Positions 32,728 through 50,228 of a stretch of 64,000 nucleotides of DNA are shown here, piece by piece. Made by a program: the position numbers and the translations under genes. The notes under the pieces were generated by a model that worked only from the letters and a program-made list of their open reading frames with translations, was not told the DNA's origin and did no database searches. The stretch lies in the IMG/VR virus record IMGVR_UViG_3300025502_001322, positions 64,001 through 128,000 of that record, one strand, 5' to 3'. Every line of letters begins with the position of its first letter. Position 1 is the stretch's first letter. This DNA is from a virus (lineage: Duplodnaviria; Caudoviricetes).

Positions 32728-34098
32728 TTACACAATCAAGTAAGGGAACAAACTTCTCCAGTCAGTCGCTCGACGTCTGTCAAGTTCGTCTAGATAAATG
32801 TGTAAATTTTCTATCTGTTCAGAATCGTGTTGGCTAACTGTCTTTAATTGTTTTTCTAACCCCCGTAGTCTAACAAAAACCTCACGTTGTTCTATTGTGC
32901 CTTGCTTTAGTGTATCGTATATACGCTTAAAGTCTTGTTGCCACATACTGTAAGAAAAAATCTTGGGGTGTAGGTATTGTTCTGGCCCAATGTAAAATTC
33001 AAAATAGTGTCCGATGTGTTTGTTGTCGTTATAGCGATTAACAACTTCGATCAGTTCGGGCATGGTTTTAATGGTCATGTTTGTTATTGTCTGATTAATG
33101 TTTAAGTTAAGCCAATCAGACTGTTGACTTGCCCATGCTAATCGCTGTTCAAATAGTTCTAAGTCCAGGCCACGCCTGACAAATTGTGCTGGCTCTCCCC
33201 AACAGTCTATGCTTGCTGTTAGGTCAAACCCTTTAATCGGTAGATGTTTTATTCTCTCGATGTAATTAATCCAGTGTTTTTCTGGCGCATTCATGTTACT
33301 GAAAATACCCAATCGTAGTTCACTGTTAGGCTTGCGCTCCAGTATATCTAAAATGTCAGTCATCAGTCGATGTTGTATAAACGTCTCTCCACCTAATAGA
33401 TGTAGTCTGCGTAAGTGTTGAACATTATCTGTTAACCAATCTAAAAATTTAGCATATAACGCTGTGTTATCCTGCTTGTTTGGTAGTGTATTTTTTAACC
33501 AAACACCCTTTTGTTTAAACTCACCGTATCTATTATTCTCTTGTTCTATCTGACTGCTTAGGTTACTGTTGCAGTATATGCAACTAAAGTTACAGGTGTT
33601 ATCTGCAAATATTTCCTGTATACGTTGTGTTATATACAAACTCCTGGTGTCAGTATCTAGTTCCAACGGTGTTAATCCTGGTATTAGGTTATTGTGATGT
33701 CTATCGCTGTGTCCACCTGCCGCTTCTATATCTCTACAATATTCACACCCATTACCAGGCCATTTGCCTTCAAGCATCTGCTCACGTGCCAGAATTTTAT
33801 TTGGTCCGTTGTGTAAGTTAAAATCATCTACACTTATATTGTCCCAGCTTGCACGGTGGCAACTGCTTGTCCTCGCTTCATTAAGCCATAGTGTGTTCCA
33901 GGTCCACTTGCTCTGACATGAGGTTGCTGTCTTAATAGGAAAGTATTTGCCCTGCTTGGAAAACTGCCGTACAAAGTCTGTAATCTCTTGGTCTATGCTA
34001 TCTATGCCGGTGGTTGCTCCAGCAACAAAGTCGACCCATTGGGGCCAGTTTTCGCCTTGGTGTTCTAGGTAGTCTGCTTGATCTATATTAGATCTCAT
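32728..34098 (-). CDS. Radical SAM protein, type B
   Basis: CQSKW...SCHR...CEYC; NTCNFSCIYC; LGGET. Confidence 0.85.
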   Translation of the reverse strand: MRSNIDQADYLEHQGENWPQWVDFVAGATTGIDSIDQEITDFVRQFSKQGKYFPIKTATSCQSKWTWNTLWLNEARTSSCHRASWDNISVDDFNLHNGPNKILAREQMLEGKWPGNGCEYCRDIEAAGGHSDRHHNNLIPGLTPLELDTDTRSLYITQRIQEIFADNTCNFSCIYCNSNLSSQIEQENNRYGEFKQKGVWLKNTLPNKQDNTALYAKFLDWLTDNVQHLRRLHLLGGETFIQHRLMTDILDILERKPNSELRLGIFSNMNAPEKHWINYIERIKHLPIKGFDLTASIDCWGEPAQFVRRGLDLELFEQRLAWASQQSDWLNLNINQTITNMTIKTMPELIEVVNRYNDNKHIGHYFEFYIGPEQYLHPKIFSYSMWQQDFKRIYDTLKQGTIEQREVFVRLRGLEKQLKTVSQHDSEQIENLHIYLDELDRRRATDWRSLFPYLIV

Positions 34099-35299
34099 AA
34101 CCCATGGCCCGTGCTATCTCTGGATGGGTATCTGTAAATTTCTCTTTACGCCACTTGTCTGCTAGATACATACGTTCATCAAACATAGGTAACTTATCGC
34201 CTGAGCCGTTTTCAATAAAACGTATTACGTTATCTACTTCAGTCTGATACTCTGGCTTCCAGTCTATGCTTTGTAATTTTACTTTAACCAGTGCTTGTGC
34301 GGCAGGTGTCATGTTCTTAATACACATCTCTGCAGGATCATGTAACATGTTAAAGTAGACAGTACCAAAGCCCTGCTTGTCTGCCCAGTCTAAAAGTTCG
34401 TTTATGTAGTAGACGTTTTGTATATTAATAGTAAAACAGAGTTGTGTAGTAATGTTTGTTACTTCTTTCTGCACTCCATGCACACGTTTAATAATCTCTT
34501 CTGCACGATTCCACTTAGCGCCGTAACGTTCGTATTCAAAACGCTTGCCAACATTGTCTATACTAAATGCAATATCTACTCTACCAAACTCTCGCCATAT
34601 GTCTACAAACTCCTCGTCCCAGGTTGTGGCGTTTGTATTGTAATGTATATCTATATGCTTGCTGTCGCCTGTTCGAATAGCAGTTTTAAGTAAGTTAAAA
34701 TGTTCTTTAATTAAGAAAGGTTCGCCGCCAGTAAATTCAAAGTACTTGATATTAGGCAACAGTGTTTCTAAGTTCTGCCAAAAGACCGGTGACTTACGAG
34801 GCCACTGACCTTCCCGTAGCATTGTGCGTGCTAGGTGATTTTTATTGTCGTGATCTTCTGTAACGTAGTCTATTTCTTCCTGGGCCCATTTGCTTGACGA
34901 CCATGAGCCACATATACGACACTTTAAGTTACAGATGTTACCCAGTTTTAAATCTATAAACCACAGTTGGTCGGGGTTGTCATTCTCCCAGTCAATTTGC
35001 TTATACAAGTCTCGAAGTCTAACCTCACTGTTAATACGTTTACTGTCTCTGCCAGCATCTTCTTCTGCCCAACAGCGTTTGCAAGTTGCAGGCTTCTCTC
35101 CACGTCTAAACTGTTGCCGTAAGTCTTGCATGTACTCACTTGCATAAATCTCTTCCAGTGTGTGTTCAGACATTTTGTACTTTGTGCCATCTGGTTTGAT
35201 TATCTCATCATCTGCAAGACAACATGGTCGAGCAGTACCGACTGGTGATGTTTCAATGCTTATCCAGGGCAAGCCACAAATTGTGTTAGGCAGAGACAT
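34088..35299 (-). CDS. Radical SAM protein, type A
   Basis: CGLPW...PCC...CKRCW; NICNLKCRIC; TGGEP; YNTN. Confidence 0.88.
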   Translation of the reverse strand: MSLPNTICGLPWISIETSPVGTARPCCLADDEIIKPDGTKYKMSEHTLEEIYASEYMQDLRQQFRRGEKPATCKRCWAEEDAGRDSKRINSEVRLRDLYKQIDWENDNPDQLWFIDLKLGNICNLKCRICGSWSSSKWAQEEIDYVTEDHDNKNHLARTMLREGQWPRKSPVFWQNLETLLPNIKYFEFTGGEPFLIKEHFNLLKTAIRTGDSKHIDIHYNTNATTWDEEFVDIWREFGRVDIAFSIDNVGKRFEYERYGAKWNRAEEIIKRVHGVQKEVTNITTQLCFTINIQNVYYINELLDWADKQGFGTVYFNMLHDPAEMCIKNMTPAAQALVKVKLQSIDWKPEYQTEVDNVIRFIENGSGDKLPMFDERMYLADKWRKEKFTDTHPEIARAMGYEI

Positions 35300-36734
35300 T
35301 TAGGTCCTTGAACTCAGGGAATGTTTCCCAGAAGTTTTCATTACGTATGCCATCTAGTTTTGCTATTTGTTTCTCAAACTCAGGCCATTGTTTGTAATTG
35401 TCCTGTGCATTTATTAAACTTAAAATACTCTTGTAACCGTTAGTAGCACGACGTAATCTATCCTTAGGGTCTAACCATTCTATGTGTTTTTCATAGGCAG
35501 GCGTAATTACTCGGTCCTTAAACTCTTGTGGGAATATGTCTGGTCTGTACCAATCAGGTGACTGACATATGTTAATGTTCCAGTCCTTTGCTGTAATTAG
35601 TCCTAGGTTTGTCCATTCTTTGTGAAAATCTAGTACATGTAAAACATTCATGGCACTAATAGTTGAACTCACATAAAAATCTACGTGAGGTACTTTAGCC
35701 ATCATCTGAAATCTATTTTGAATAGCCTGTTCCCAGTCAGTTCCTTTACGTATAAGTTCTGCTTGTGGCCCCATTGCATCTAAACTGGCACCTACACTTA
35801 CATTTTTAAAATGTTTCCAGTAGTCATATACGTGCTTGTCTTTAAAACGCATTTCACTAAAGTTAGTGTTGTACTGAATACGCACATCTGTTTTACCATG
35901 CTCTATTAGTTTCTCTAATAGGTAGTAGTGTTCCTTCATTATTAGCGGTTCACCACCTGCAAAGTATACCTGCTCTAAATGTGGAATATGTGGTTCCATT
36001 TGTTCTAGCATGGAAGACTCATCACCAGCAGTGTACTCTACACGTGCCATATCTCTGCCTAATACGTCTGGCTTTTTACCATATAACTTTACATGGTCAT
36101 TATACCAGTTACTGCTAAAGATAGGACCACAACTTCTACAGCTAAAGTTACACAGGTTACTGAACCTGACATCCCAATAGCGTATCTTAAATTCTTCGTG
36201 ATGTCCATCTGACGCAGTTTGTTTTATTTCATGTACATTGTGTCCGTAGGTTTTATTAGCATCGTTGCGCATACTGAATGCTCCGTGTTGTTCACGTTCG
36301 TAACAATTTTTGCATTCTTTACAGGGTTTGTCATCTAACATGTTACGGCGCATCTGCTTGTATGGATCTTGATTCCATACTTCTGCCATTGTGTTCTTAC
36401 GTAGATCACCAACTGGGCTCCAGTAATCACTTAAACAGCACGGATAAGCTCTACCATCCGGAAAAGCATGCATGTGTACCCATGGCAACATGCAGAAGTT
36501 TTTACTTTCAGTTAGTTTGTATTTTTGATCATCGTCTAGCTGGTCCCATTTTATGTGTGTTGGTTTGAGCGAATTATAATCGTAACCAATGTTAATTTTA
36601 GCAGATTGCTTCCCGAACTCCACAAGTTTAAGTTTTATCGCCGGGTCGGTTATTTTATCTGCAACATAATCCTCATACGATGGCCAGTCTGATCCGGCAA
36701 ACTGGTCATATGCTTCTTTGTGTAGTTTGTTCAT
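35286..36734 (-). CDS. Radical SAM protein, type A, with N-terminal G-x-DWP module
   Basis: CMLPW...PCC...CKNCY; NLCNFSCRSC; AGGEP; start at an ATGA overlap. Confidence 0.88.
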   Translation of the reverse strand: MNKLHKEAYDQFAGSDWPSYEDYVADKITDPAIKLKLVEFGKQSAKINIGYDYNSLKPTHIKWDQLDDDQKYKLTESKNFCMLPWVHMHAFPDGRAYPCCLSDYWSPVGDLRKNTMAEVWNQDPYKQMRRNMLDDKPCKECKNCYEREQHGAFSMRNDANKTYGHNVHEIKQTASDGHHEEFKIRYWDVRFSNLCNFSCRSCGPIFSSNWYNDHVKLYGKKPDVLGRDMARVEYTAGDESSMLEQMEPHIPHLEQVYFAGGEPLIMKEHYYLLEKLIEHGKTDVRIQYNTNFSEMRFKDKHVYDYWKHFKNVSVGASLDAMGPQAELIRKGTDWEQAIQNRFQMMAKVPHVDFYVSSTISAMNVLHVLDFHKEWTNLGLITAKDWNINICQSPDWYRPDIFPQEFKDRVITPAYEKHIEWLDPKDRLRRATNGYKSILSLINAQDNYKQWPEFEKQIAKLDGIRNENFWETFPEFKDLNVSA

Positions 36735-38074
36735 AATGTGTTGTACCAATCTGCTAGTTCTGGAAAAGTTGCTGTCAAGTTCTTTCCTCTACGTTTGTCG
36801 TACTGCTCGTGAAACTTTTTAAAGTCGTTGTGTAGTTTGGGCATGTCGAATGTGTCTGAATGTGGTGTCTCCACTACATCCAAGTAATCAATTAATCTTA
36901 TGATGTGGTTAATCTCATGTTCGTGTAACAACTGCCCAATTGGTCTTGCCATCTGATAATCCAACCATGTGCGTAAACGTTCTTTGTGCTTAATTCTAAT
37001 TTCTTTAGGGAACACTAACGGACTTTGGAAACTAGGGAAGCGTAAGATATTAAGCGTAAAACTTACAGCATGTTTACCGTGTTTTGACTTCCATCCAACT
37101 AATAAATCTAAAAAGTCAGTTAGACTTTCCAAACACAATGCATTAATTGTACACATTACATGTAACCCACGTAATTTATTTCTATGTACTTGTAGTATTT
37201 TGTTTATGTTATCACACCATAGTTCCCATTCCAGCCCATCACGTATATACTCTGCATGACCGTTAACACTTTCATTGCTGGTGTACACATCAATTGGTTG
37301 GTCTACACTGTCAAACAACCTACCTACATCTATATCCTTACCTAAGTTACTGTTAATAGCCAGACGTGTTTTGCTTTTACCTTTGTTTTCTTTAAACCAA
37401 TCAATAAGTTTCCAAGTGTAGCCACTCATCAAAGGTTCGCCACCTGTAATGCGTAGTTCGTCTAGTGTTCGGTGTAGGTCTGATTCCCACCACTTGAAGA
37501 ACGCCTCAACATAAGGATTTTCCTCGCCGAATTTATACAACTGCGCACTGTCATGAGCATGGGTAAAATGATTGCGCCCATCAGAAACGAGCCCAGTATA
37601 ACTTCCGTTTGATTTAATGTCCTTAACCCATGTACTACTAAAAGCAGGGTTGCAATAACTGCAAGCAAATTGACAAGTCCTATCGAAACTGATTTCCAAA
37701 GTTCGTAAGTCCACGTCTCTTGTTGCATCTGATTGATATGCATCGTCTAATTCCTTTATAGTGTATATTTTACTTTTATAGACACGGTCAGAAATATTAT
37801 CACGGTTGATATCTTCAATCTTCCAGCAGTACTCACAACCTGGCGGACGTTCTCCTGCCTGCATCTGCGCTCTGTCTTTTTTCTTTTCAGGCGTGTTGTG
37901 TATTGCTTTGGGATTACGCTTAACTTCTTCAATATCAACTTTGTGTGCTGGTGGGTGATGACAACTGGTACTCATGCCACTGCCTAACCATATGGTGGCG
38001 TTATACCATTTCGCTCCACAAAAGCTCGCTGACTTTGTGTCTAACATTTGTTTCTTAAATTCTAAATCATTCAA
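36731..38074 (-). CDS. Radical SAM protein, type B
   Basis: CGAKW...SCHHP...CEYCW; RTCQFACSYC; TGGEP. Confidence 0.88.
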   Translation of the reverse strand: MNDLEFKKQMLDTKSASFCGAKWYNATIWLGSGMSTSCHHPPAHKVDIEEVKRNPKAIHNTPEKKKDRAQMQAGERPPGCEYCWKIEDINRDNISDRVYKSKIYTIKELDDAYQSDATRDVDLRTLEISFDRTCQFACSYCNPAFSSTWVKDIKSNGSYTGLVSDGRNHFTHAHDSAQLYKFGEENPYVEAFFKWWESDLHRTLDELRITGGEPLMSGYTWKLIDWFKENKGKSKTRLAINSNLGKDIDVGRLFDSVDQPIDVYTSNESVNGHAEYIRDGLEWELWCDNINKILQVHRNKLRGLHVMCTINALCLESLTDFLDLLVGWKSKHGKHAVSFTLNILRFPSFQSPLVFPKEIRIKHKERLRTWLDYQMARPIGQLLHEHEINHIIRLIDYLDVVETPHSDTFDMPKLHNDFKKFHEQYDKRRGKNLTATFPELADWYNTL

Positions 38075-39301
38075 TTACCATACTCCATTGTCATTGAGTA
38101 TTTTTCCATACTCAGGAAATATTGTAACATAATCTTCATTTCTATACAAGTCTTTTTCTTTTGTCCAAAACTTAAACTCGTCCCAGGGTGTGTTGACATT
38201 TAACTCTGATTCATCAAATAACTTTGGTTTTGTTTCAAGTAGTTTTACTATAGACGTTACATTATTTTTTCCTATAAGTTCTACATGAGACTCTAAATGT
38301 TCACGCACAATAGGTTTAATTTTGTCTGGTATTACATTTACGCAATAATAACTGGGCCACTGTACAAGTATTACAAACGGTGTGATCTCAATATTGTGAA
38401 ACATCTTAAACTTTACAAACTGTTCATATACTTCATGAAAGTCCCATACATTAATAGCACTTACACATATGACAGGGACGATACTTACACTATAGTTTGA
38501 CTGTTCTTCTAGTTTGATAAAATCACATAGGTTATTATATACTATTTTCCAATCTGCTGGGTGTCTCACGTAGGTTATCTTTTTGCCCACTGCGTCCAGA
38601 CTGATGTTAACAGTTACATTTTTAAAACCAAGTAAAATGTTACGCCAGGCTTCTGTCAACTTATGTGTGCAGTTTGTGCTTATCTTTAGGTCTATGTCTT
38701 TGGCTTTTCCTGAATCAACAATGCGAGTAAGCAGTTTAGGAACCATGTTATCCAACAGTGGCTCCCCACCATACAGTTCTATTTTTTCTAAGTTATCAAC
38801 ATAGTTATATAGGTCATCCAACTGCTCATCTGTAAAATGTTTTTTAAACTTTTCTCTGGTGTATATTGTATTAGACAACCCATGTTTTTCTTCATAGTGT
38901 TTGCCTTCTATGTGGTACAAGTAACTGTCGTAACTTTGACATGTTCTGCAACGCAGGTTACATATATTACTTACTTTAATGTTTAAGTTTTTAGGTCCTT
39001 TAGTGTAATCTGTGTTAACAAAATCAAACAAGGATAATCTACTTAGTTGATTTACTCTTTCACTTCTATGTCCTAATTTTTCTTCCGACCAACATCTCTG
39101 ACACATGTCTAATTGTTCGCCGTTACTGGATCGCTGTCTAGCATCTTCAAGTTCAGGGCTTGCCCAAATCTCCTTAAAAGTTTTATTAGGAAATTTGTAT
39201 GCCCCGCCCCCCAGCGCAGTACATGGGCTATATGATCCTGCAGGATCTACAGTAGCATCTACATAGAATGCTGGGCAGGTGTTTTCATTAAACTTGTGCA
39301 T
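38075..39301 (-). CDS. Radical SAM protein, divergent type A
   Basis: CPAF...PCT...CQRCW; NICNLRCRTC; YGGEP. Confidence 0.85.
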   Translation of the reverse strand: MHKFNENTCPAFYVDATVDPAGSYSPCTALGGGAYKFPNKTFKEIWASPELEDARQRSSNGEQLDMCQRCWSEEKLGHRSERVNQLSRLSLFDFVNTDYTKGPKNLNIKVSNICNLRCRTCQSYDSYLYHIEGKHYEEKHGLSNTIYTREKFKKHFTDEQLDDLYNYVDNLEKIELYGGEPLLDNMVPKLLTRIVDSGKAKDIDLKISTNCTHKLTEAWRNILLGFKNVTVNISLDAVGKKITYVRHPADWKIVYNNLCDFIKLEEQSNYSVSIVPVICVSAINVWDFHEVYEQFVKFKMFHNIEITPFVILVQWPSYYCVNVIPDKIKPIVREHLESHVELIGKNNVTSIVKLLETKPKLFDESELNVNTPWDEFKFWTKEKDLYRNEDYVTIFPEYGKILNDNGVW

Positions 39302-40658
39302 GGTACCTACATTCTGACCACCAGGATTCCATTTCCGGGAAAGTTTCTAAAAAGTTTGTATTTCTACGTTTATCGTGTTCATTGAAAAATAAAAAGAAGT
39401 TTCTCTTTTGTTGTTTAATGTACTCTCCATCCAGTTGTTGGCCTTCTCGCATCCAAGCAATGGTTCTTCGCATACGTTGTACCTCAAAGTCTTTAAAACC
39501 TGTACTGTATTCTATATTCTCTTCCATCCAGTCAGCAACTTCGTCTAGACGTTGTGCATAACTTTCTGGTAGTATTTGTAAACTCTGCCAAGCAGGTTGT
39601 CTAAGTAAAGGAGTATCAAACCAAATTTTATTGTACTCTTTATTGTGTTGACGTCGCAATTCTAATATCCAGCCTAGCAATTTTTGTAATCTGATAACAC
39701 TTAAATTATTCATTGTAATAATAAATGTTAGACTGTTCTTGTATTTAACTTCACGTAGGTAATGCTCTACGTATCCTGTCAAGCGTTGCATTTTTAAACC
39801 ATCACGTATGTACTCTGCTTGTACACCCATGCTGTCTACACTAACATACTGCATAAAGTGTTCTAAGTAGTTGCTCGAACACATCTTCTTAACGTATTCT
39901 ATGTACTTGATAAACAAACCATTCTCAACACTGAAGTTACTGGTAACATTTAAATGTAAATCAGGCTTAGGCAATGCTAACACGTACTCAAACACACGGT
40001 ATGTGTTACGATCCATTAGTGGCTCACCACCAGTCATTCTAAAGTGTTCTAGTTTGGGGTATAGTTCTGGCCACCATTTCCAAAATGCGTCAACATATGG
40101 ATTTTCTTCTCTATTAGGAACAGGTCGCCTGTCTCCCATAAAGTGTTCTGGTGCATTGTGTGGTTGTATTGTTGGGTAAGCACCTTTGTCTTGTACTTCT
40201 TTTGCCCAACTTGAACTAAACTGTGGGCTACAATAACTGCACCTAAGGTTACATGCGTTGTTAAAATTGACTTCCACATAACTAGGTATAACATCTTCTT
40301 GCCAGTCTATTGTGGCAGGATCCATTTGTGCCCAGGGCTCACCTGAACGATAATGTCTATCACTCAAGTTACCTGCATCTTCTATTGCCCAACAGTAACT
40401 ACACTCTTCAGGACGCTTGCCCTCTATCATTAACTTACGTTGTTGTTTTTTATGCTCTGTGTTATGTAGTGCGCTGGGATTCTTTTGTATTGCCGCTAAA
40501 GGTATTTTGTGCAACGGTGGATGATAGCAACTGTTGTTAAGTCCTGTGGGCAGGTGCAAACTTACTTGTTTCCATTTTGCATAGCAAAGACTAGGACCCA
40601 ACTGGTCCTTCATGGCCTCTGCCGCTGACATAAATTCGCTTTGATCGCCTTTTGTCAT
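39288..40658 (-). CDS. Radical SAM protein, type B
   Basis: CYAKW...SCYHP...CSYCW; NACNLRCSYC; TGGEP. Confidence 0.88.
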   Translation of the reverse strand: MTKGDQSEFMSAAEAMKDQLGPSLCYAKWKQVSLHLPTGLNNSCYHPPLHKIPLAAIQKNPSALHNTEHKKQQRKLMIEGKRPEECSYCWAIEDAGNLSDRHYRSGEPWAQMDPATIDWQEDVIPSYVEVNFNNACNLRCSYCSPQFSSSWAKEVQDKGAYPTIQPHNAPEHFMGDRRPVPNREENPYVDAFWKWWPELYPKLEHFRMTGGEPLMDRNTYRVFEYVLALPKPDLHLNVTSNFSVENGLFIKYIEYVKKMCSSNYLEHFMQYVSVDSMGVQAEYIRDGLKMQRLTGYVEHYLREVKYKNSLTFIITMNNLSVIRLQKLLGWILELRRQHNKEYNKIWFDTPLLRQPAWQSLQILPESYAQRLDEVADWMEENIEYSTGFKDFEVQRMRRTIAWMREGQQLDGEYIKQQKRNFFLFFNEHDKRRNTNFLETFPEMESWWSECRYHAQV

Positions 40659-41632
40659 ACTACTCTTCTCTTTGATCCGTTACGTCTAACATCAAGTGTT
40701 AAACAATGTATACCGGCTTCCCAAAACATGCCGTGTCTTACGGGAACATGGTGTACTGTTATGCCATGTGCTTCTACTTCAGGTAACTCTATACTACTTA
40801 CAATGTTTTCGCTGTCCACAACTAAAACGTTACTTTCAAATGCTGTGTCTTGTGCGAGTCCTTGCCACTGTTCCAGCCACGTAAATAAATTTTTCCTGTT
40901 ACCCTGTTGTATGTCTTTTAAACTTTCACTATACTTGAAAGTTCTATTGTTTAGTTCTATAATTGTTTTGCTACGTAAGCATTGTGGTACCCACGAGATG
41001 TCAACACAAAACACTGTGTCATCATCCGTCATGTAAAAGCCTTGATCTATGTGGCCCCATCGACCTTGTCTTGTGTCTACGTTTTTTACTAGAGTGCCTT
41101 CACAGTTTCTCTCCATCCAGTCATACCCATTTTGGTTACCCGGACCGTAGTCATTAATAATTATGCTATCACCTGCCTTAAACATTGTAGCAGTGTGCCA
41201 TAACAATTTATTTTTATATTCGTGATGATACGGTGTGGCAACCATTTGGTAGGATAACTGTTCTAGTATAGGCGGTGGCTGACTTAACCAGTTATGTCCT
41301 TGCATAAACAGTTGTGCAAATACATCATAATAACATAAGCCGTCCCAGTATCTATCCTTCATACTTGTATATGTTTGGTATACACAATCGCCATATACCA
41401 AATACTGATCACGTGGCACAATAGGATATATTTGACTAGGCTGTAGATCGCCTATTGTTGGGCGGTGTACTTTAATGCCTAACTTAGTTAAGTAGTTGGC
41501 TAAGTTATCTAAATCCTCTTTTGTTTCTGTTAGTATTTTATCTAACTCAGGCACGCCTGGATATGTAGGTCTGCAATCTCCTACTATAACTTCTTCAAGT
41601 GGATCCCATTCAGTCCAGACTGTCACCAACAA
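40655..41632 (-). CDS. Amidinotransferase (glycine/inosamine-phosphate amidinotransferase family)
   Basis: TEWDPLEEVIVG, PRDQ, GHID, GIHCLTLDVRR (catalytic Asp/His/Cys pattern). Confidence 0.88.
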   Translation of the reverse strand: MLVTVWTEWDPLEEVIVGDCRPTYPGVPELDKILTETKEDLDNLANYLTKLGIKVHRPTIGDLQPSQIYPIVPRDQYLVYGDCVYQTYTSMKDRYWDGLCYYDVFAQLFMQGHNWLSQPPPILEQLSYQMVATPYHHEYKNKLLWHTATMFKAGDSIIINDYGPGNQNGYDWMERNCEGTLVKNVDTRQGRWGHIDQGFYMTDDDTVFCVDISWVPQCLRSKTIIELNNRTFKYSESLKDIQQGNRKNLFTWLEQWQGLAQDTAFESNVLVVDSENIVSSIELPEVEAHGITVHHVPVRHGMFWEAGIHCLTLDVRRNGSKRRVV

Positions 41633-42086
41633 TCTCCTTTAAGTATTCTGGTTCCCAAAATGTATAATAATCTGTTTTTGCTAACTGCGTACGTGCGCCT
41701 AGTAGTTTCTGTTTATTTTGACACAGTATTAACTTATACTTGCCGTTATTAGTCTGCACACCGTTAATGTGTGTTTCTTTTTCACTGTCAGGTAAAAATA
41801 TCATATCAGGATATTGTTCTGCTAATCTAGCACAATGCTCTTTTAGTTCGTTGTGTGTCAGCGGGTTGTTATGACTTAACTTCTGTTCACTACAGATTAG
41901 TATCAGTACATCACACTTAATGTCTGGCAGTTCTTTAAGGTCTCTAATTTGTACATTAACTGCTCGCATCTTAGCCAGGTGTGCATAAGGACAAACACGA
42001 TTGCCGCCTAATTCTTCGTAAGGCATTACTAAACGTTTAATCCAGATTAATAGATGATTTTGTTGTTCATGTGTTGCTAAACGCAT
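41610..42086 (-). CDS. Hypothetical protein, DUF1415-like CPYA motif
   Basis: LGGNRVCPYA. Confidence 0.55.
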   Translation of the reverse strand: MRLATHEQQNHLLIWIKRLVMPYEELGGNRVCPYAHLAKMRAVNVQIRDLKELPDIKCDVLILICSEQKLSHNNPLTHNELKEHCARLAEQYPDMIFLPDSEKETHINGVQTNNGKYKLILCQNKQKLLGARTQLAKTDYYTFWEPEYLKEIVGDSLD

Positions 42087-43254
42087 TGTCTAACCTTTCG
42101 TTTAACTCGTCCCAATAACCATTATCTTCTATACCGACAGGAACACATAATGTTAAATGATTATTGTCATAATAACATCCTAATCCGCTGGGCATTATTC
42201 CACTCTCTAACAACTTAAGTTGTGTTATTGGGTTAACTAGCTCAACACTACACAAAATACCTTTGTGCCAGCCTTGTTTAATGTGACCCTTTGTTAGCCT
42301 CTCAGTAATTAAACTGTTGAACCTAGAAGTAATATTATTAAAGGCTGTTTCTTCTGGCCAATGTCTCCAGATCCAGTTTGCGGCATCAACTCCTGCCATG
42401 TTAGGACTCCAGGTGTGACTAAAACCAAACTTCGCACTTACTGATCTTGTGATATCCTCGCTCATACACACTGTGCTTAGTGGTGTGTATCCACCAGTAA
42501 TACTTTTACCACTTATTACCAGATCAGGTAAGATGCCCTGTGCATTGTGTGTAAATCGTGTACCTGTTTTACCATAGCCGCCCATGACATCATCAACAAT
42601 CAGTAAACATTCATACTTGTCGCACAACCTACGCACTTCATGCCACCAGGAATCCGACCAGGGGCGCAATTTTTCTATCCAGGGTATGGACTCCATAAAC
42701 ACTGTGCCGATATTGTGATTATTCTTTAATAGATCCTCTACCTGTTGTAAAGCGGCATTTTCATGATGTTGTCTTGCGACTATAGTTGGCCATATACCAG
42801 TATCCACAATGTGGCACCAGGGAACCTCGAATTCACCACGTAATATACTAGGCAAAAGACTTGTACCACTATACCCTGGTGCAAAACATATTATTTCCTG
42901 TCTATTGGGATTATGTTTTTTAAAATACAAATCTTTAAGGTAAAACGCAAGCTCTACGGCATCAGTACCACTAACTGCCCATGCTACACTGTGTAATCCA
43001 CTTTCCTGTGTGATATTGTTGGCAAGTAAATCTACAGACTCGGTGCTTTCGCTTGCCTTGTAGTTTACCCATGATACTTTATTTGTTATACCATGTACTG
43101 CCCAGAGTATATTCCAGTGGTTGTATCCCCAGATAAATGTCTGATTGCCACAACTGATGTCAAACAATCTTCCAGCATTGGTGTCACAATACCACCTGTC
43201 TTGTTTGCTTACGAGTAAGTTTACTCGATCATCGGTTAACTCTGCTAATTCCAT
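42067..43254 (-). CDS. Class III PLP-dependent aminotransferase
   Basis: SGTDAVE, FMES, LIVDDVMGGYGKTG, PDLVISGKSITGG, HTW. Confidence 0.9.
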   Translation of the reverse strand: MELAELTDDRVNLLVSKQDRWYCDTNAGRLFDISCGNQTFIWGYNHWNILWAVHGITNKVSWVNYKASESTESVDLLANNITQESGLHSVAWAVSGTDAVELAFYLKDLYFKKHNPNRQEIICFAPGYSGTSLLPSILRGEFEVPWCHIVDTGIWPTIVARQHHENAALQQVEDLLKNNHNIGTVFMESIPWIEKLRPWSDSWWHEVRRLCDKYECLLIVDDVMGGYGKTGTRFTHNAQGILPDLVISGKSITGGYTPLSTVCMSEDITRSVSAKFGFSHTWSPNMAGVDAANWIWRHWPEETAFNNITSRFNSLITERLTKGHIKQGWHKGILCSVELVNPITQLKLLESGIMPSGLGCYYDNNHLTLCVPVGIEDNGYWDELNERLDNAFSNT

Positions 43255-44177
43255 TACCAGCCTTCAACAATCCTGATAATGTCTATTTCTCTGGTCATGG
43301 GCTTTATGTTAAAATGTTTTCCGGTTAGGTGATGCTTTAGAAATTTACTTTGCTCTGCATCTAGTGTAACAATTGGCAGTCCTAATCGTTTTGATAGAAC
43401 AGTTTCCAATATCTTACTGTGTTCTACTGGGTCGTTGTCTTTAACTGACTCCCATAACTTTTCTAGTTCCACAAAGTCTTGTACACGCTTGTAAGGCCAG
43501 TCTTCCAACATGGTCATGTAAGTACCAAGTCGTGCGCCATACATTGCCCAGATGCCGTTAGTTATGTCCTGTCCAACACTTTGCCAAATACATAACTGAT
43601 CGTAATTCCTATTGTTTACTTTTTTATCAAACTCCAACAGCGATGGTTTAACTCCACGATCCAAACACATCTTTACACCTTCTCTAAATCCTGCTCGCCA
43701 TGCTTGAAAAGGTGTTTGGTTAGGATAGGTAGTACTATAACAATTATGCATTGCCAAATATCGTTTGTCGAAACAAAACTCCACTGCGGTATCATCACTA
43801 CCGTCTGAGTTTTCGTGTGTGCGCATATCGGCAACAAAGTCTTTTGTCCAGCAACTGATACCACCATTGCCATACATAAGTCCGTTTATCTCATTGCGGG
43901 CTCTCCATCTAAACACACAGTCTCGATTTGTATCATCTAGCTCTAACTGTATGTTAAAGAAGTCTGGATCAGGCAAGTTGTCACCGTCTATTAACACAAA
44001 CCTATATGTGTCACTTGCTTCACCTGCGGCTTTGTGTGCATTATCACTGCCTTGCACACCGTCCACACGTTTGGCCCAAGGTACTATGTTTTGTATTTTA
44101 ATCCAGAACTCTTCCTTCTTGGGCTCGTCATACGTTAAAAATATGACATCTAAATCTGCTACATCAATAATGTCCAT
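43254..44177 (-). CDS. GT-A fold glycosyltransferase-like protein
   Basis: VIFLTYDEP, RVDGVQG, LIDGDN (DxD), YGNGG, AWRAGFREGVKM. Confidence 0.7.
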   Translation of the reverse strand: MDIIDVADLDVIFLTYDEPKKEEFWIKIQNIVPWAKRVDGVQGSDNAHKAAGEASDTYRFVLIDGDNLPDPDFFNIQLELDDTNRDCVFRWRARNEINGLMYGNGGISCWTKDFVADMRTHENSDGSDDTAVEFCFDKRYLAMHNCYSTTYPNQTPFQAWRAGFREGVKMCLDRGVKPSLLEFDKKVNNRNYDQLCIWQSVGQDITNGIWAMYGARLGTYMTMLEDWPYKRVQDFVELEKLWESVKDNDPVEHSKILETVLSKRLGLPIVTLDAEQSKFLKHHLTGKHFNIKPMTREIDIIRIVEGW

Positions 44178-44529
44178 GGTCCCAATACTCCGGATTGTTG
44201 TCATCAGGAAATGCTAGGTTGTTACGCATAACACTGTAGCCTGAATTGCTTGGTTTTAGTAATTTAGTCTTTACCTTATGTGGTATATCTGTTATCGTGC
44301 CGTCCTTAATAATACAGTTATGTAACTTATGCATAACTGTATTATATTCGTTCCAGTTCATTTCCAAACAAGGACCAGTGGGGTCTCCCGGTTCATTATG
44401 AACTTGCTTAGTTACTTCTCCTTCACTATTATAATATATTCTGTATGTTTCTACAATAGCTTTAGGTGGAATAAACTCAGTTACGGCTTTGGAAAATTCG
44501 CTCCAGGCTTTGGATTGCTTGTCTGACAA
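44164..44529 (-). CDS. Hypothetical protein
   Basis: 121 aa ORF in the operon. Confidence 0.6.
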   Translation of the reverse strand: MSDKQSKAWSEFSKAVTEFIPPKAIVETYRIYYNSEGEVTKQVHNEPGDPTGPCLEMNWNEYNTVMHKLHNCIIKDGTITDIPHKVKTKLLKPSNSGYSVMRNNLAFPDDNNPEYWDHGHY

Positions 44530-45328
44530 ACTCTTTGTCCTTTATAAAATAATGCACAGGATACATCTGCTTTTGTGTGTTCAAACTTAACACCCCATCA
44601 TTGCCAAACTGTGCTAGTACATGATCTTGCCAGTTTAAATTAGGATGCCAACTGTTAACTGCACCTTTCATATGCACAAAACTTGGTATAGCATGTGGTA
44701 AATAACACCGTTCTTCTCCTACTAGCTTTGCTGTTACTGCATATGCAACGTCGGTACTAACCCTATCTTCCCTACAATTTTTAAGTATTCTATCTCTGAA
44801 TCTTGGCCAATGTTGGTATACATACCTTAGTTGCCGCCAGAACTCCTGACTGGTATGCCCATACCTAAAATAACTAAATCCGTTGTACGTGTTTAATAAA
44901 TTATTTTCCACAAACAATTTACGGTAAGTCATCGTGTTATTGATGTTGCCTTCCCAGTCTCGTATATTTGTACAAATGCAGACCTCACGCTCCTGCATTG
45001 CAGACCACCAATGATCTATGTTGGTGGTTAATAATATGTCTGATTCAATTTTTACTGTCTCCTTGAAGGGAGTCAATGGACCCACCTGCCATTCGTTGGC
45101 CAGTTTCCAGTCATCATCGACGGCATCGTCCTGTTGTAAATCAATTACATGGTCAAATACAGCCAGGTACTTTTCCTTCATTGCCAGTCTGGTTTGTTTA
45201 TCAACCAGTACTGCATAGTTGGTATATTTTTTCTGTGTTAGTTTAATACTCAGAGCCTGCAGATACGCTAACTCTAAGTAGTCAGTAGTACTATTGTTCT
45301 GTGCTATTGTCACGTACCCTGATGTCAT
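44477..45328 (-). CDS. GT8-like glycosyltransferase, paralogue 1
   Basis: GYVTIAQN...YLELA...TPFKETVKIESDILL...DVAYA...HMKG. Confidence 0.6.
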   Translation of the reverse strand: MTSGYVTIAQNNSTTDYLELAYLQALSIKLTQKKYTNYAVLVDKQTRLAMKEKYLAVFDHVIDLQQDDAVDDDWKLANEWQVGPLTPFKETVKIESDILLTTNIDHWWSAMQEREVCICTNIRDWEGNINNTMTYRKLFVENNLLNTYNGFSYFRYGHTSQEFWRQLRYVYQHWPRFRDRILKNCREDRVSTDVAYAVTAKLVGEERCYLPHAIPSFVHMKGAVNSWHPNLNWQDHVLAQFGNDGVLSLNTQKQMYPVHYFIKDKEFVRQAIQSLERIFQSRN

Positions 45329-46155
45329 ATAAAATCCACTAACGACTTTTTATCCATAATATGTATGTCTTGTCGGACCCTGCCTACATAGTTATGCTTT
45401 TGTTTTTCGTAGACATATTTTATCCCACGTTCATTGTAGTCAATGATCTTTGCTCTAGATGTCAGTGTGGGCAATGCCCATGGTATGCTATATGTATTTG
45501 TGCCATAGCCTCCCAGTATGTGTAATGCTATACTAAGTGCAAAATCGTTCCTAAATACTTTGCGGTTAAATTGGTATAGTGATGAATAATACTCCCAGTG
45601 TTCTTTAACTAACTTCATCATCGTAAATACATTTTCTGAAAAGTTGCACTTGTCGAACAAAACTGCTGTTGCCCATACCATTGGTATAGTGTAACTGTTT
45701 AACCTCTTGTCGGAGTTATATAAGTTCTGCCCGGTAACATCTAACACACTGTAGTGACATGTAAATTCAATATCCAGATCAAACAATTTTTTGTAGTTGT
45801 TTGACATTATCAAGTAGTCAGCATCTAGTAAAAGTGTCCGATCAAAAGGCGTTAGGTCATATGCATCACTGCGACTGCCATTTATCCAGGGAGTTGACAA
45901 TGATTCGCCGTTAAAGTAAAACACCCTTTTGTTCGTGTCTTCAGTATTATCCATGATGACATGGTCAAACATGGTGGTGTCTGATTCATCACGTGTCTTG
46001 GTGTCAGTAATTACTGCTACTGGTAACTGTAAATGTTCTTTTATCAATCCACAATTATGTTGTGCTATGCGCATGTAATCCAGTTTAGAATTACGTGCGA
46101 ACATTAGTACACCTTTAGACTTGGGTTGCTCGCCTGGTTTGTTTGAGTTGCTCAT
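45325..46155 (-). CDS. GT8-like glycosyltransferase, paralogue 2
   Basis: KGVLMFA...YMRIA...TPFDRTLLLDADYL (DxD)...RNDFA...HIMDK. Confidence 0.65.
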   Translation of the reverse strand: MSNSNKPGEQPKSKGVLMFARNSKLDYMRIAQHNCGLIKEHLQLPVAVITDTKTRDESDTTMFDHVIMDNTEDTNKRVFYFNGESLSTPWINGSRSDAYDLTPFDRTLLLDADYLIMSNNYKKLFDLDIEFTCHYSVLDVTGQNLYNSDKRLNSYTIPMVWATAVLFDKCNFSENVFTMMKLVKEHWEYYSSLYQFNRKVFRNDFALSIALHILGGYGTNTYSIPWALPTLTSRAKIIDYNERGIKYVYEKQKHNYVGRVRQDIHIMDKKSLVDFI

Positions 46156-46438
46156 ATTCTACATGGTATGCATTAATCTTTTGTTGGTATGATTGTTTAG
46201 CATATTCTAATAATGTTGTTCTTTGTACCTGAATAGGATTTTCGTAGGTGTCTACCATATAGATAGTGTCCTCTTCCCAGGCATTTAGAAATGCTATTAG
46301 ACCTTGATCTGCCTTAAACATACCACCATTGTGTGCAACGTATAGATCTGAATCTATACGTTCTTTAAGATTCTTTTTTGCTACAGCAAGTTCGAAACGA
46401 GCCTGTGCGAACTGTTCTAATTTATCTACTTTGTCCAT
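46115..46438 (-). CDS. Hypothetical protein
   Basis: 107 aa ORF, first gene after the structural genes. Confidence 0.65.
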   Translation of the reverse strand: MDKVDKLEQFAQARFELAVAKKNLKERIDSDLYVAHNGGMFKADQGLIAFLNAWEEDTIYMVDTYENPIQVQRTTLLEYAKQSYQQKINAYHVEYEQLKQTRRATQV

Positions 46439-46527
46439 GTTGGTATTTTACATTAATATTGTTGAATAGTCAATACAAAAATGGCACTATTTCTAGTGCC
46501 AAATTTGTGTTTATTTGTAAAACTAAG

Positions 46528-47532
46528 TTATGCGACTGCCGCCGTTGCTTGTGCCATTGTGACTGTGCCCCAAGTAGTAGTTAAATGCGTTGCACTTGGT
46601 GGGACATTGCTGGCCACAACCCTAGCATCACCGTCCATTATGTCAAGAGGATCATATTCTGGCTTATCATAAGTTTGGTCTGTTGAAGCGTCTAAGAAGC
46701 TAATCTTAAATGTTACAATACTGCCACTATCACTGTTTGATCCTTGTGCGCCGTTAGATTTTGCTTCAATCCTAATATTGTTTGCGGCACCACTAATGTA
46801 CGGGCTACCAGCTGATGTTAAATCTCTTTGAAGTATTGTCTGATAACCTGTGGTCATGTCATAATAACCAATAGTAGTTGCTAATGTGACTTGAGAGCTT
46901 GTGTGTGCTTCTGTAACTGTGATAGAATCGGCACCACCACTTATAACGCTACCGTTTGCACTGTATACCAGAGACCCAGCCATCTGTGTTAATGCGTTCC
47001 AGGATCTTGCTTTGGCATCATCTGTATAACCTACCATTTGCGGATCTAATACAATTGTACCACCTGCATTAAAGAAATATCTTGCTTGATCTGCTGAACT
47101 AAATGTAAAAGTTACTTCCTGAATATTACTTACTGTCCAGTTGCCTGACGAGTTAAAGGTTGAAGAAGCAGTTGATCCTTGGGCCGCCGCATTAGTTTTG
47201 TTGCTATGTAATGTACTAATGTTTGTGCTAATTGCGGCTATGATTTCAATCTCATTTCCTGCACTAGGAGAAGTCATTGAAGTTAAACTAGACCCTTGGT
47301 GACTGCCCATTGTGGTTATTCTTGAAAGAGCCGTAGCCCACTGTGTTGCAGTTACGTTACTGCCTGCTGTAACTGCTGATAATGTTCCAGACTGACCGTA
47401 ACCCCGGTCTCCTGTCCCAGTTCCCCAAATGTTGTTAATATTTGCACTGTCGGTTGCCGTTCCTCCAGTATGCCCTGTAGCGAATACATTGTATTCGTCA
47501 TCTAGTATTGTATCACCGGTTTGGTATGCCAT
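46528..47532 (-). CDS. Putative virion structural protein, paralogue A
   Basis: Ser/Thr/Gly-rich; MAYQTGDTILDDEYNVFATG; RYFFNAGG. Confidence 0.65.
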   Translation of the reverse strand: MAYQTGDTILDDEYNVFATGHTGGTATDSANINNIWGTGTGDRGYGQSGTLSAVTAGSNVTATQWATALSRITTMGSHQGSSLTSMTSPSAGNEIEIIAAISTNISTLHSNKTNAAAQGSTASSTFNSSGNWTVSNIQEVTFTFSSADQARYFFNAGGTIVLDPQMVGYTDDAKARSWNALTQMAGSLVYSANGSVISGGADSITVTEAHTSSQVTLATTIGYYDMTTGYQTILQRDLTSAGSPYISGAANNIRIEAKSNGAQGSNSDSGSIVTFKISFLDASTDQTYDKPEYDPLDIMDGDARVVASNVPPSATHLTTTWGTVTMAQATAAVA

Positions 47533-47547
47533 CTTTATTTCTTCCTA

Positions 47548-48549
47548 TTATGTATGTGTACTACTACCCAACGCAATTGTTGGATTAGACCAACTCTGAG
47601 TCAAATATGTTGTGCTAGGTGGAACACTAGAAATTTCATTTCGTACTGTGCCATCCATAATATCTAAGTCACTATATTCAGTCTTATCAAAGGTACTATC
47701 CTCACTTGCGTCATTATAATCTATTGTAACTGTAATAATTGTTCCGTTGTCACTAAAACTCCCCTGAGTCCCATTTGATTTCACATAAACCTTAACGTTA
47801 TTTGCTGTATTTACAATATAAGGACTAGCAAATGTAGTCAATGTCTTGTCAAACAGCAATTGATTGCTTGTAGTTAGGTCATAATAACCTAACGCACTTA
47901 CGGATGCAGGACTTGATGCATGGGCATCTGTAACTGTAATACTATTTGATTCTCCAGTAACTGTTGTAGCGTCTGACTTAAACTGTAGACTTCCTGCCAT
48001 CTGTACCAATGCGTCCCAACTACGTGCTTTTGCATCGTCTGTGTAGCCAATAACTGTGGGATTAATATGTATGTATCCACCTGCATTAAAGAAATATCTT
48101 ACTTCATCTGCATCTGCCCACGTAAGTGTAATAATTTGTTGTGCCTGTGTTGACCAGGATCCTGTGCTATCTATGTTTGATGTTGTACTAGAACCGGTTG
48201 CTACAGCAGTTTTCCTATTAGTGTGTATAGTGCTAACATTGGCACTAATTGTGCCGATAACCTCAATAATGTCTGTAGCACTAGGATTTGTCATAGATGA
48301 AATGCTAGATCCCTGATGGTCTGCCGCACTAGTGACACGAGCTAACATAGTAGACCATTGTGTAGCAGTTACTGTGGATCCTGCTGTAACAGCACTCAGT
48401 GTAGTTGCCTGGCCGTAACCTCTGTCTGCTTGTCCGATGCCCCAGACATTGTTTATGTTTGCACTATCTGTGGAGCCACCGCCTATTAATCCTGTGGCAA
48501 ATACATTGTATTCGTCATCTAATATCGTGTCTCCGGTTTGGTATGCCAT
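47548..48549 (-). CDS. Putative virion structural protein, paralogue B
   Basis: Identical first 20 aa to paralogue A and collinear throughout. Confidence 0.65.
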   Translation of the reverse strand: MAYQTGDTILDDEYNVFATGLIGGGSTDSANINNVWGIGQADRGYGQATTLSAVTAGSTVTATQWSTMLARVTSAADHQGSSISSMTNPSATDIIEVIGTISANVSTIHTNRKTAVATGSSTTSNIDSTGSWSTQAQQIITLTWADADEVRYFFNAGGYIHINPTVIGYTDDAKARSWDALVQMAGSLQFKSDATTVTGESNSITVTDAHASSPASVSALGYYDLTTSNQLLFDKTLTTFASPYIVNTANNVKVYVKSNGTQGSFSDNGTIITVTIDYNDASEDSTFDKTEYSDLDIMDGTVRNEISSVPPSTTYLTQSWSNPTIALGSSTHT

Positions 48550-48558
48550 ACTACATCC

Positions 48559-50046
48559 TTATGAATTCAATTGGACTACTGCTTCTACTACGCCGATGCC
48601 ATCATCAGTTTTACTTGTTAATGCTCGACCAATTACGTTAAAAGAAGTGATCTCTGAACGAGTACCTGCTCTTGCAAGTCCGTTTCCAGCTGAAATTAAT
48701 CTATCACCTTTATTTACCTTACCTAGCACTTGTACTGGTACCCTACCTTGTAGAGCAACACCAGGATGTGTTTCATCTGTGCCTGCTCCAGCATTCATCA
48801 AGTGTGCTGGTTGTTTACTAATAACACCAAATACATCTTCTGATGCATCGTCTAATACTCTAGTAATTTCATTAACACCACCTAGTGCAACTACTGTACC
48901 AGGTGTATAAACATCATCAGCGTGGAAGCGTTCGGCCACGTCAGCGTATTGCGCTTGTGTTGATGTTCCGTTAAATGTTGTTGCATATATTGTAGCAAAC
49001 TTAGTTAACGATGCACCCAAATTATGAGTATTATTAGTGTCTGGTAAAATATTTCCACTTATAGTGTTTGCGCCGTTTCTTGCTAGTGCATTACCTGTTA
49101 GGATAATGTTGTCTACATAGTTCTTTGTTGCTACACCTAGTCCTGTTGTAGGATCACTTGCTACTAACAAAGTTGATGTAGCACCATCTATTGTTAATGC
49201 CGTAGTAAGTACACCACCATCGTTAACTTTAATGTAGATGTCTCCATCTGATGTTTGATTTTGAATTGTTGCATCACTGCCACTAACACTGATTTTTACG
49301 TCACTGTCAGCACCAACAATAAATCCTGTATCGTTAAGTACACTCAGTGTTCCTGATGTTGAGTCGTTAGCGTCTGCACGTAAAAACTGTGTACTAGTTA
49401 GACTATCTAACAAGTCTGCATTACTTGCTGTGCCTGTTAGTTGGATACCTGCAATAGTTCCTGTACTTGCAAGATTAATACCTGGCTTAATAGTACTAAA
49501 TCCTGTAATACTTGGATCTGGGGTAAATGTTCCATCCTTGCTGATAATGCTAACTACTGTGTTACTAGTATAGTTCTTAATAACGACATGATCCACTGCA
49601 CCCGGAGTATCGGTGACTGTCTCAACAATGGCGCCTGATGTTCCTGCGCCTGCTGTAGCGGGTGGACCAACGAGAATAAATGCTGACCCGTCGTATGCTT
49701 TCAACTGCTTGTCAGTACTGCTCCACCATAAATCACCTGTTGTGTTATTTGTGGGCGTACTAGTAGTACTTGTAATTGCTGACAACCGCTTAAAGCCAAC
49801 AGCACCACTGATGTACACTTTTAAGTGACTGGTAGTAGTATCGTACCAAAGTTGTCCTGCAATAGGCGTTCCTGGTTGTGTAGTATTTGCAAAGTTTTCT
49901 AACAACTTCACATAGTTTTCGTTCTGTAACTCACCGTAACCAGCATAATTTTTGCCAATTAAGGTTAAGTCTGAAGTGGTGTCGATAGTACCATCAGCGA
50001 TTGTTGTTAACACCGCCCCACTTGTTTTGTTAATTGTATAAGCCAT
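48559..50046 (-). CDS. Tail fibre/spike protein with C-terminal intramolecular-chaperone-like domain
   Basis: MAYTINKT...LIGKNY.GYG...ENF anchor; C-terminal YADVAERF...GTVV..GG...GVIS..PA.LMN...GRVPV. Confidence 0.75.
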   Translation of the reverse strand: MAYTINKTSGAVLTTIADGTIDTTSDLTLIGKNYAGYGELQNENYVKLLENFANTTQPGTPIAGQLWYDTTTSHLKVYISGAVGFKRLSAITSTTSTPTNNTTGDLWWSSTDKQLKAYDGSAFILVGPPATAGAGTSGAIVETVTDTPGAVDHVVIKNYTSNTVVSIISKDGTFTPDPSITGFSTIKPGINLASTGTIAGIQLTGTASNADLLDSLTSTQFLRADANDSTSGTLSVLNDTGFIVGADSDVKISVSGSDATIQNQTSDGDIYIKVNDGGVLTTALTIDGATSTLLVASDPTTGLGVATKNYVDNIILTGNALARNGANTISGNILPDTNNTHNLGASLTKFATIYATTFNGTSTQAQYADVAERFHADDVYTPGTVVALGGVNEITRVLDDASEDVFGVISKQPAHLMNAGAGTDETHPGVALQGRVPVQVLGKVNKGDRLISAGNGLARAGTRSEITSFNVIGRALTSKTDDGIGVVEAVVQLNS

Positions 50047-50084
50047 TTATAGTTTACTCCATTTATCTTATATTTATTACGATT

Positions 50085-50228
50085 CTAACCTGAGAAAATT
50101 TGTTTCCAGGTTCCACTTACTTTAACATAAGCGGCAGTAATGTTCTTCCATGTTCCGCTTACCTTGGTCTTAATTGCTGTGACCTGTTTTTGTGATCCTG
50201 CTACTTTTACATAAACATTAGTGGACAT
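50085..50228 (-). CDS. 47-aa fibre-tip-like peptide with KVSGTWK repeats
   Basis: Hand-translated MSTNVYVKVAGSQKQVTAIKTKVSGTWKNITAAYVKVSGTWKQIFSG; start overlaps the upstream stop (TAATG). Confidence 0.7.
   Translation of the reverse strand: MSTNVYVKVAGSQKQVTAIKTKVSGTWKNITAAYVKVSGTWKQIFSG

Follow-up and report, generated by a model that had tools for sequence, protein, structure and literature searches.

A possible guanidino-sugar tailoring and transfer cassette with a His-variant amidinotransferase in a large tailed-phage genome

Gene islands combining radical S-adenosylmethionine (SAM) enzymes, amidinotransferases and sugar transferases are widespread in large phages, with CP220, RsoM2USA and S-SCSM2R as cultured cases. 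In the Campylobacter phages CP220 and CPt10, a module of radical SAM genes and a putative glycine amidinotransferase gene was described without an assigned function (Timms et al., 2010; PMC2853527), and the gene set of cyanophage S-SCSM2R that includes an amidinotransferase was labelled 'antibiotic synthesis genes' by its authors (PMC12801897). Here, we analyzed a 64,000-nucleotide stretch of DNA (the window), which spans bases 64001-128000 of one 289,070-bp virus record (IMGVR_UViG_3300025502_001322, Caudoviricetes) whose completeness is estimated at about 80%, focusing on the genes at 40655-46155 that encode an amidinotransferase-family protein, a class III pyridoxal phosphate (PLP) aminotransferase and three glycosyltransferase (GT)-like proteins. 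We tentatively read this span as a cassette that tailors and transfers a guanidino-sugar, with the Ser/Thr-rich fibre proteins of the adjoining genes as its probable target, a reading to which we give somewhat less than an even chance. A first-pass annotation of the same DNA had judged that such chemistry would be unusual in a phage; if this is taken to mean rare, it does not hold, as the cassette type was already described in CP220/CPt10 in 2010 (PMC2853527). The island type itself is known descriptively, and what is new here is a His-variant, viral- or metagenome-only amidinotransferase clade with a 158-aa partner protein, together with evidence that the genes for the amidinotransferase, this partner and the aminotransferase (hereafter, the trio) behave as a module.

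The CP220 module consists of four radical SAM genes, a small open reading frame (ORF), the amidinotransferase gene, a further radical SAM gene and two genes with the nucleotide-diphospho-sugar-transferase fold, which run in one direction near tail or baseplate genes. Compared with the window, the CP220 amidinotransferase is only 25% identical and bears the canonical Asp (VDAA) instead of a His, neither a class III transaminase nor a detectable 158-aa homologue is present in this phage, and its GT and radical SAM genes display no BLAST-detectable homology to those of the window. In S-SCSM2R, the amidinotransferase gene is located among five annotated GT genes, a DegT/AHBA-type aminotransferase, a radical SAM maturase and 2-oxoglutarate oxygenases, with SpeD and PrnA nearby. 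Searches with profiles of the GT8-like, 316-aa and 158-aa families of the window retrieved no homologues in CP220 or S-SCSM2R; therefore, the likeness lies at the level of domain architecture only, and cassettes of radical SAM, amidinotransferase and GT-A genes recur independently in these two phages. In the Ralstonia jumbo phage RsoM2USA, a block of genes all annotated as hypothetical (RsoM2USA_350-355) follows the same order as the window, with identities of 26-37% to the window proteins, and comprises a structural paralogue, a 107-aa protein, two GT8 proteins, a small ORF, a 316-aa protein, an N-terminal-twitch (N-twitch) radical SAM enzyme and a 316-like protein. This block differs from the window in having no amidinotransferase, 158-aa protein or class III aminotransferase, and one radical SAM gene against seven; the absence of the trio thus indicates that it is a portable module which entered an already existing island of GT and radical SAM genes. 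A search of cultured phages at the DNA level gave no match.

The five genes named in the first-pass annotation were all found on the minus strand where it had placed them, within a long minus-strand gene run. The features of the region, in 5' to 3' order along the minus strand, are the following:

46528-55643, minus strand: virion genes of fibre or spike type, upstream of the operon, encoding acidic, Cys-free proteins with 17-28% Ser+Thr, one of them with a Peptidase_G2 domain
46439-46527, minus strand: gap with a terminator-like hairpin (46501-46482) and then a promoter-like site (46473-46445), both consensus matches only
46115-46438, minus strand: 107-aa conserved small protein, first gene of the operon, also in RsoM2USA
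45325-46155, minus strand: 276-aa GT8-like candidate glycosyltransferase of the retaining GT-A type
44477-45328, minus strand: 283-aa GT8-like GT-A paralogue, with ExD replacing DxD
44164-44529, minus strand: 121-aa conserved protein, 68-74% identical to its counterparts in the viral contigs L001 and L002
43254-44204, minus strand: 316-aa protein, predicted to have a GT-A (nucleotide-diphospho-sugar transferase) fold in its N-terminal part, followed by a helical C-terminal domain
42067-43254, minus strand: 395-aa class III (omega) PLP aminotransferase
41610-42086, minus strand: 158-aa conserved partner protein
40655-41632, minus strand: 325-aa amidinotransferase-family protein
31400-40658, minus strand: seven tandem N-twitch radical SAM genes, members of the same operon

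From 46438 down to 29487, neighbouring genes either overlap or lie no more than 8 nt apart, and the sole upstream gap (46439-46527) separates the operon from the fibre-type structural genes. We read the segment from 46438 down to about 29487 as one long late-type operon that begins directly downstream of the tail-fibre/spike genes, with a likely start at 46445-46501 because the terminator-like and promoter-like sites occupy the only intergenic gap; the genes at 40655-46155 make up its promoter-proximal portion. Three conserved genes in or touching the span, encoding the 158-aa, 121-aa and 107-aa proteins, were absent from the first-pass annotation. None of the operon proteins has hydrophobic segments, which points to cytoplasmic chemistry and argues against an undecaprenyl-linked assembly of envelope glycans. 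Judging from their composition, the Ser/Thr-rich fibre-type proteins are plausible candidate acceptors for O-glycosylation. Two further genes were observed in this region: an SGNH/GDSL-type hydrolase gene (28797-29423) at the tail of the same minus-strand run, and a 109-aa ORF (28043-28372) whose product, alone among those of the 29 genes surveyed on the minus strand (26347-55643), has a membrane-like segment.

The 325-aa protein displays full-length homology to solved amidinotransferases of the GME/pentein superfamily. Searches against PDB sequences (phmmer) matched amidinotransferases only, namely StrB1 (1bwd, 1.7e-22), HsvA (5wpi, 1.7e-15), AGAT (1e-11) and SxtG (6e-9), as did profile A3, built from 16 viral homologues (HsvA 1.5e-40, StrB1 1.1e-36, AGAT 7e-31, SxtG 4e-29); Pfam and NCBIfam reported nothing for this protein and PHROGs nothing useful. 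It carries the motifs PRD (73-75), GHID (193-196) and IHC (308-310), and in the printed alignment D75, H194, D196 and C310 correspond to D108, H227, D229 and C332 of StrB1. The nucleophile Cys310 (AGAT C407) and the general base His194 (AGAT H303) are invariant in the 16 homologues and conserved in at least 134 of the 135 full-length representatives drawn from a 1.84-billion-protein library; the guanidinium-binding Asp75 and Asp196, aligned with StrB1 D108 and D229, are invariant as well, and the Cys, the His and both Asp residues are near-invariant over the 135-representative set. The third residue of the triad is His146 (WHTA), at the position where StrB1 D179 and AGAT D254 stand within the FDAA motif of StrB1, HsvA and AGAT. 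The catalytic pattern had previously been called intact: its three motifs are real and had been correctly interpreted, but the third triad Asp is replaced by His146.

This replacement is found throughout the close relatives of the protein. The His is invariant in the viral homologues (16/16) and occupies the triad-Asp column in 17 of the 135 representatives, all the closest matches included. The Asp is retained in the second amidinotransferase of the same genome, in CP220 gp086, in S-SCSM2R ORF309 and in every scorable cellular locus (56/56), and a scan of 185,579 species genomes retrieved only canonical, Asp-bearing amidinotransferases, with identities of at most 27% and without radical SAM or GT genes such as those of the window adjacent to them. 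By homology, the 325-aa protein is a member of the amidinotransferase family with a predicted chemistry; given the substitution of the triad Asp by His, transamidination by this enzyme is something that we infer. We encountered the His-variant clade, with its altered active site, in viral or metagenome sequences only.

The gene for the 158-aa protein overlaps the start of the amidinotransferase gene by 23 nt. This protein (phrog_10325) contains a CPYA motif with one invariant Cys and gives weak DUF6875 and thioredoxin-like hints, and its atlas neighbours are unnamed viral clusters; its family profile found no relative in the PDB, and Pfam, NCBIfam and PHROGs yielded nothing useful for it or for the three GT-like proteins. 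The same domain occurs fused to the C-terminus of a Trp-halogenase-like flavoenzyme in contig L010 (L010:2615-4591) and of a radical SAM enzyme in the metagenome protein P0213, for which a scan of viral contigs gave no match. A complex prediction for the amidinotransferase with the 158-aa protein scored 0.00, which counts neither way. The 158-aa protein is an obligate-looking partner of the His-variant clade.

Homologues of the amidinotransferase were identified in 25 viral contigs, with 41-89% identity and distributed in about 12 lineages, and in two of these contigs, L001 and L002, the cassette is complete and its gene order conserved, with identities of 63-91%. Over the about 12 lineages, that of L001/L002 included, the amidinotransferase gene is accompanied by the 158-aa gene in about 8, by the class III transaminase gene in about 7, by a small AdoMetDC-like gene (PF02675, 2e-12) in about 7, by a B12-binding radical SAM gene in about 5 and by an N-twitch radical SAM gene in about 4, with HMPTM-type radical SAM and Trp-halogenase-like genes in some. 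GT8-like genes were present only in L001 and L002, and the 316-aa family additionally in L010. As modules, the trio and the GT genes can be separated from each other, the trio plugging into different tailoring islands. A conserved viral cluster devoid of GT genes was also observed (L005:7434-17094 and L003:3317-14400), composed of a Trp-halogenase-like or B12 radical SAM gene, the amidinotransferase module, a B12 radical SAM, an HMPTM-zinc-ribbon radical SAM, an AdoMetDC-like and one further radical SAM gene.

With regard to the remaining enzymes of the operon, the 395-aa protein matches PF00202 (4.6e-39; 134.7 bits, cut-off 30.5), and its Schiff-base Lys250 (SGKSITGG) and PLP-binding Asp221 (DDVMGG) align with the BioA motifs, which bears out the proposal of a class III aminotransferase with its Lys. 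Among solved proteins it is closest to BioA-type and other omega-transaminases; no NCBIfam equivalog cut-off was reached, and a sub-threshold match was obtained to the aminotransferase family of daptides, a class of peptides that are made on the ribosome and modified after translation (RiPPs). The seven neighbouring radical SAM proteins score 207-400 bits against NF033640 (N_Twi_rSAM), all above its curated cut-off of 170 bits, and have secondary matches to SPASM peptide maturases.

The two GT8-like genes of the first-pass annotation were confirmed, the 276-aa protein by its fold and by profile matches to glycogenin, and the 283-aa protein by paralogy. The former belongs to an unannotated family of 92 clusters in which D111xD113 and H265 are invariant, and its AlphaFold model (mean predicted local distance difference test, pLDDT, 91) adopts a GT-A fold whose top solved matches are GlyE (1.9e-6), glycogenin, XXYLT1, UGGT and LgtC (E from 2e-6 to 3e-5), all GT8 or related retaining GT-A enzymes, with viral GT8/GT-A proteins matched as well. 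Its family profile gave 19 weak matches in the PDB, all 19 to glycogenin (E about 0.01); no Pfam match was obtained even at E 10, so membership of Glyco_transf_8 is not supported at the sequence level. The 283-aa protein is a diverged paralogue of the 276-aa protein (BLASTP 2e-5; profile 8.5e-14) with ExD instead of DxD. The 316-aa protein represents a strongly conserved and wholly unannotated family of at least 8000 clusters, the 120 best of which are about 65-90% identical, with RsoM2USA as its only cultured representative. In its model (pLDDT 83), which presents the invariant Y25-D26-E27 and D73xD75, the N-terminal ~160 residues match PBCV-1 A64R best (Foldseek, 3.4e-4), followed by SunS and TarP; GT-A enzymes reach VIA Z 8-9.4 and IspD-type cytidylyltransferases Z about 8, and Pfam returned a weak match to Glyco_tranf_2_3 (E 0.24). 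Since cytidylyltransferases of the same fold score nearly as high, the fold that had been proposed for this gene is supported for its N-terminal domain, but the transferase type is not. Single-sequence PDB searches with the 316-, 283- and 276-aa proteins returned nothing meaningful, and the 316-aa family profile found no relative in the PDB.

Further genes of the same record that were considered are the following:

20300-26405: nucleotide-sugar cluster with, on the plus strand, epimerase/dehydratase, DegT aminotransferase and GFO/IDH/MocA oxidoreductase genes
23219-25267, minus strand: 682-aa protein, one domain of which belongs to the 316-aa GT-A family, within the nucleotide-sugar cluster and 8 kb away
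7933-8286, plus strand: AdoMetDC-like gene (pyruvoyl decarboxylase family), homologous to the gene adjoining the trio in other viral contigs
genome ~279-287 kb (L029:7064-15109): second cluster with, in order, an N-twitch radical SAM, a UDP-glucose/GDP-mannose dehydrogenase-family, an Asp/Arg-hydroxylase-like, an amidinotransferase, three unannotated and an N-twitch radical SAM gene

The amidinotransferase of the second cluster is canonical (FDAA; L029:10302-11318, genome 282302-283318), and the two radical SAM genes of this cluster reach 250 bits against NF033640. Its location beside a UDP-glucose/GDP-mannose dehydrogenase-family gene, among N-twitch radical SAM genes, supports a link between amidinotransferases and sugars in this genome. 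Other genes were noted in the course of this survey, including one for a 379-aa unannotated protein in the nucleotide-sugar cluster, one for a 676-aa protein with CHASE2 sensor and adenylate/guanylate cyclase domains (L029:2991-5021, genome 274991-277021) and one for a UvdE-type ultraviolet damage endonuclease near the end of the record (L029:15578-16693). A MoxR-type AAA ATPase gene followed by one for a DUF2201 metallopeptidase/VWA protein was found at 14556-16951 of the window; such a pair usually constitutes a chaperone-like two-gene system.

According to our tentative model, the seven N-twitch radical SAM enzymes would oxidize or rearrange a nucleotide-sugar or cyclitol-type intermediate made by the phage or the host, and the class III transaminase would then aminate the resulting carbonyl. 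Using arginine as donor, the amidinotransferase would turn this amine into a guanidino group; Cys310 would carry the S-amidino intermediate, His194 would act as the base, and Asp75 and Asp196 would hold the guanidinium. Finally, the three GT-A-fold enzymes would transfer this decorated, cationic sugar onto a macromolecule, most likely the upstream Ser/Thr-rich fibre proteins. The data show the family and fold assignments, the operon structure and the recurrent synteny; the order of these steps, the use of arginine, the amine that accepts the amidino group and the final target are inferred. The operon structure, the recurrence in CP220 and S-SCSM2R, and the presence of nucleotide-sugar genes in the same genome support a functional connection of the amidinotransferase with the GT genes.

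Several observations weigh against this model. The GT and radical SAM block of RsoM2USA exists without the trio, so the link to GT genes is not obligatory; conversely, in about 8/12 lineages no GT-like or N-twitch radical SAM gene lies within 10 kb of the trio. The fold predicted for the 316-aa protein is matched by cytidylyltransferases too, the best profile match of the amidinotransferase is the polyamine amidinotransferase HsvA and not StrB1, and with the triad Asp replaced by His across the clade, the chemistry may differ from classical transamidination. Class III transaminases, moreover, mostly use omega-amines and aldehydes, and not the nucleoside diphosphate ketosugars that are substrates of DegT-type enzymes. 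The first-pass proposal that a guanidinylated, cationic sugar or amine is made and transferred is partly supported, by the enzyme families and by the operon and synteny links, and is weakened by the altered triad and by the separability of the trio from the GT genes.

The AdoMetDC-like, B12 and HMPTM-type radical SAM and Trp-halogenase-like neighbours of the trio suit a small amine or other metabolite better than a sugar. A rival explanation, rather unlikely in our judgement, is that the product of the trio and the AdoMetDC-like pyruvoyl decarboxylase is a diamine or polyamine bearing an amidino group, or a similar small cation, which would serve as an inhibitor, as a signalling molecule or as counter-ion of the DNA. 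The GT-like genes would then have a virion or glycan function of their own and would share no more than the operon. It is consistent with the lineage counts given above, in which the decarboxylase-like, 158-aa and transaminase genes accompany the amidinotransferase far beyond the closest relatives and L010, where the GT-like genes are confined, as well as with the top profile rank of HsvA (1.5e-40), the preference of class III transaminases for diamines or omega-amino acids, and the RsoM2USA block that does without the trio. The window does have AdoMetDC-like genes at 4-8 kb, but these lie 33 kb from the trio, which is itself embedded with overlapping stop and start codons between a GT-A gene and the radical SAM genes. 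Furthermore, the distant amidinotransferases of CP220 and S-SCSM2R are likewise embedded among GT-A and radical SAM genes, and neither an aminopropyl synthase nor a polyamine synthase was observed close to the trio.

We consider it improbable that the operon modifies a protein or peptide, in which case a structural protein or a small peptide of the phage would be matured by the radical SAM enzymes, the amidinotransferase would produce guanidino groups on it from Lys/Orn-type side chains or from an introduced amine, the 158-aa protein would serve the tailoring enzymes as a common substrate-recognition adaptor and the GTs would glycosylate the same protein. The 158-aa domain, either stand-alone or as a C-terminal fusion (to the halogenase-like protein of L010 and the radical SAM protein P0213), does behave as recognition domains of peptide pathways do, yet it displayed no similarity to known recognition elements. 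Likewise, the SPASM secondary matches and the sub-threshold daptide match are in agreement with such a function, as are the adjoining small conserved ORFs (107 and 121 aa) and fibre genes and the appearance of the capsid-glycosylating A64R and the peptide S-glycosyltransferase SunS among the top fold matches of the 316-aa protein; against it, all the radical SAM genes belong to NF033640, which is not a maturase family, and no leader-peptide-like precursor was identified. We know of no solved amidinotransferase that acts on proteins.

That the cassette places a glycosyl- or guanidino-containing group on the phage bases to evade restriction is very unlikely: phages commonly glycosylate or aminate bases, all the cassette enzymes are soluble, and CP220, with a related cassette, has fully modified DNA (PMC10516641), but the sole thymidylate-synthase-family gene encodes a bona fide thymidylate synthase (7e-85 to solved ones) and not a dCMP/dUMP hydroxymethylase, no TGT/DpdA was found in a record about 80% complete, where absence is not proof, and in CP220 the modified base is 7-amido-7-deazaguanine, for which a DpdA3-type enzyme is held responsible instead of the radical SAM/amidinotransferase cluster (PMC10516641). 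Modification of the hydroxymethylcytosine/hydroxymethyluracil or deazaguanine type was also considered as a leading idea and was rejected as unlikely, given the true thymidylate synthase and the lack of a TGT in this incomplete record.

Returning to the guanidino-sugar model, its boldest form would be that giant phages put a guanidino-bearing cationic sugar on their own Ser/Thr-rich fibre proteins by means of a virus-only, Cys-His-His amidinotransferase clade that needs a dedicated 158-aa partner. Taken as a whole, this statement is a long shot; if true, both the virion glycan and the catalytic variant of the pentein fold would be of a new kind, and a cationic fibre glycan would bear on host recognition, on the evasion of immunity or defence systems, and on phage engineering.

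In comparison with characterized enzymes, the 325-aa protein shares with StrB1 (1bwd), HsvA (5wpi) and AGAT (1jdw) the N-terminal WDPLEEVIVG and C-terminal HCxTLDVxR motifs, and differs from them in a 7-residue deletion after GHID; in addition, only the clade of the window has an invariant His in place of the triad Asp and the obligate-looking 158-aa neighbour. The 276-aa protein has in common with the GT8 enzymes glycogenin, LgtC, GlyE and XXYLT1 the GT-A fold, the DxD motif and the C-terminal His, whereas its identity to them is only 12-15% and the TM-score about 0.4. The PBCV-1 capsid glycosyltransferase A64R (2p6w) matches the 316-aa protein weakly (E 3.4e-4, TM 0.28-0.40) and without sequence similarity; both proteins are virus-encoded and soluble, with genes located near structural genes, and the GT-A fold of A64R is predicted for the N-terminal domain of the 316-aa protein. 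Among the cultured phages, RsoM2USA, which carries the island without the trio, constitutes the natural comparison for experiments.

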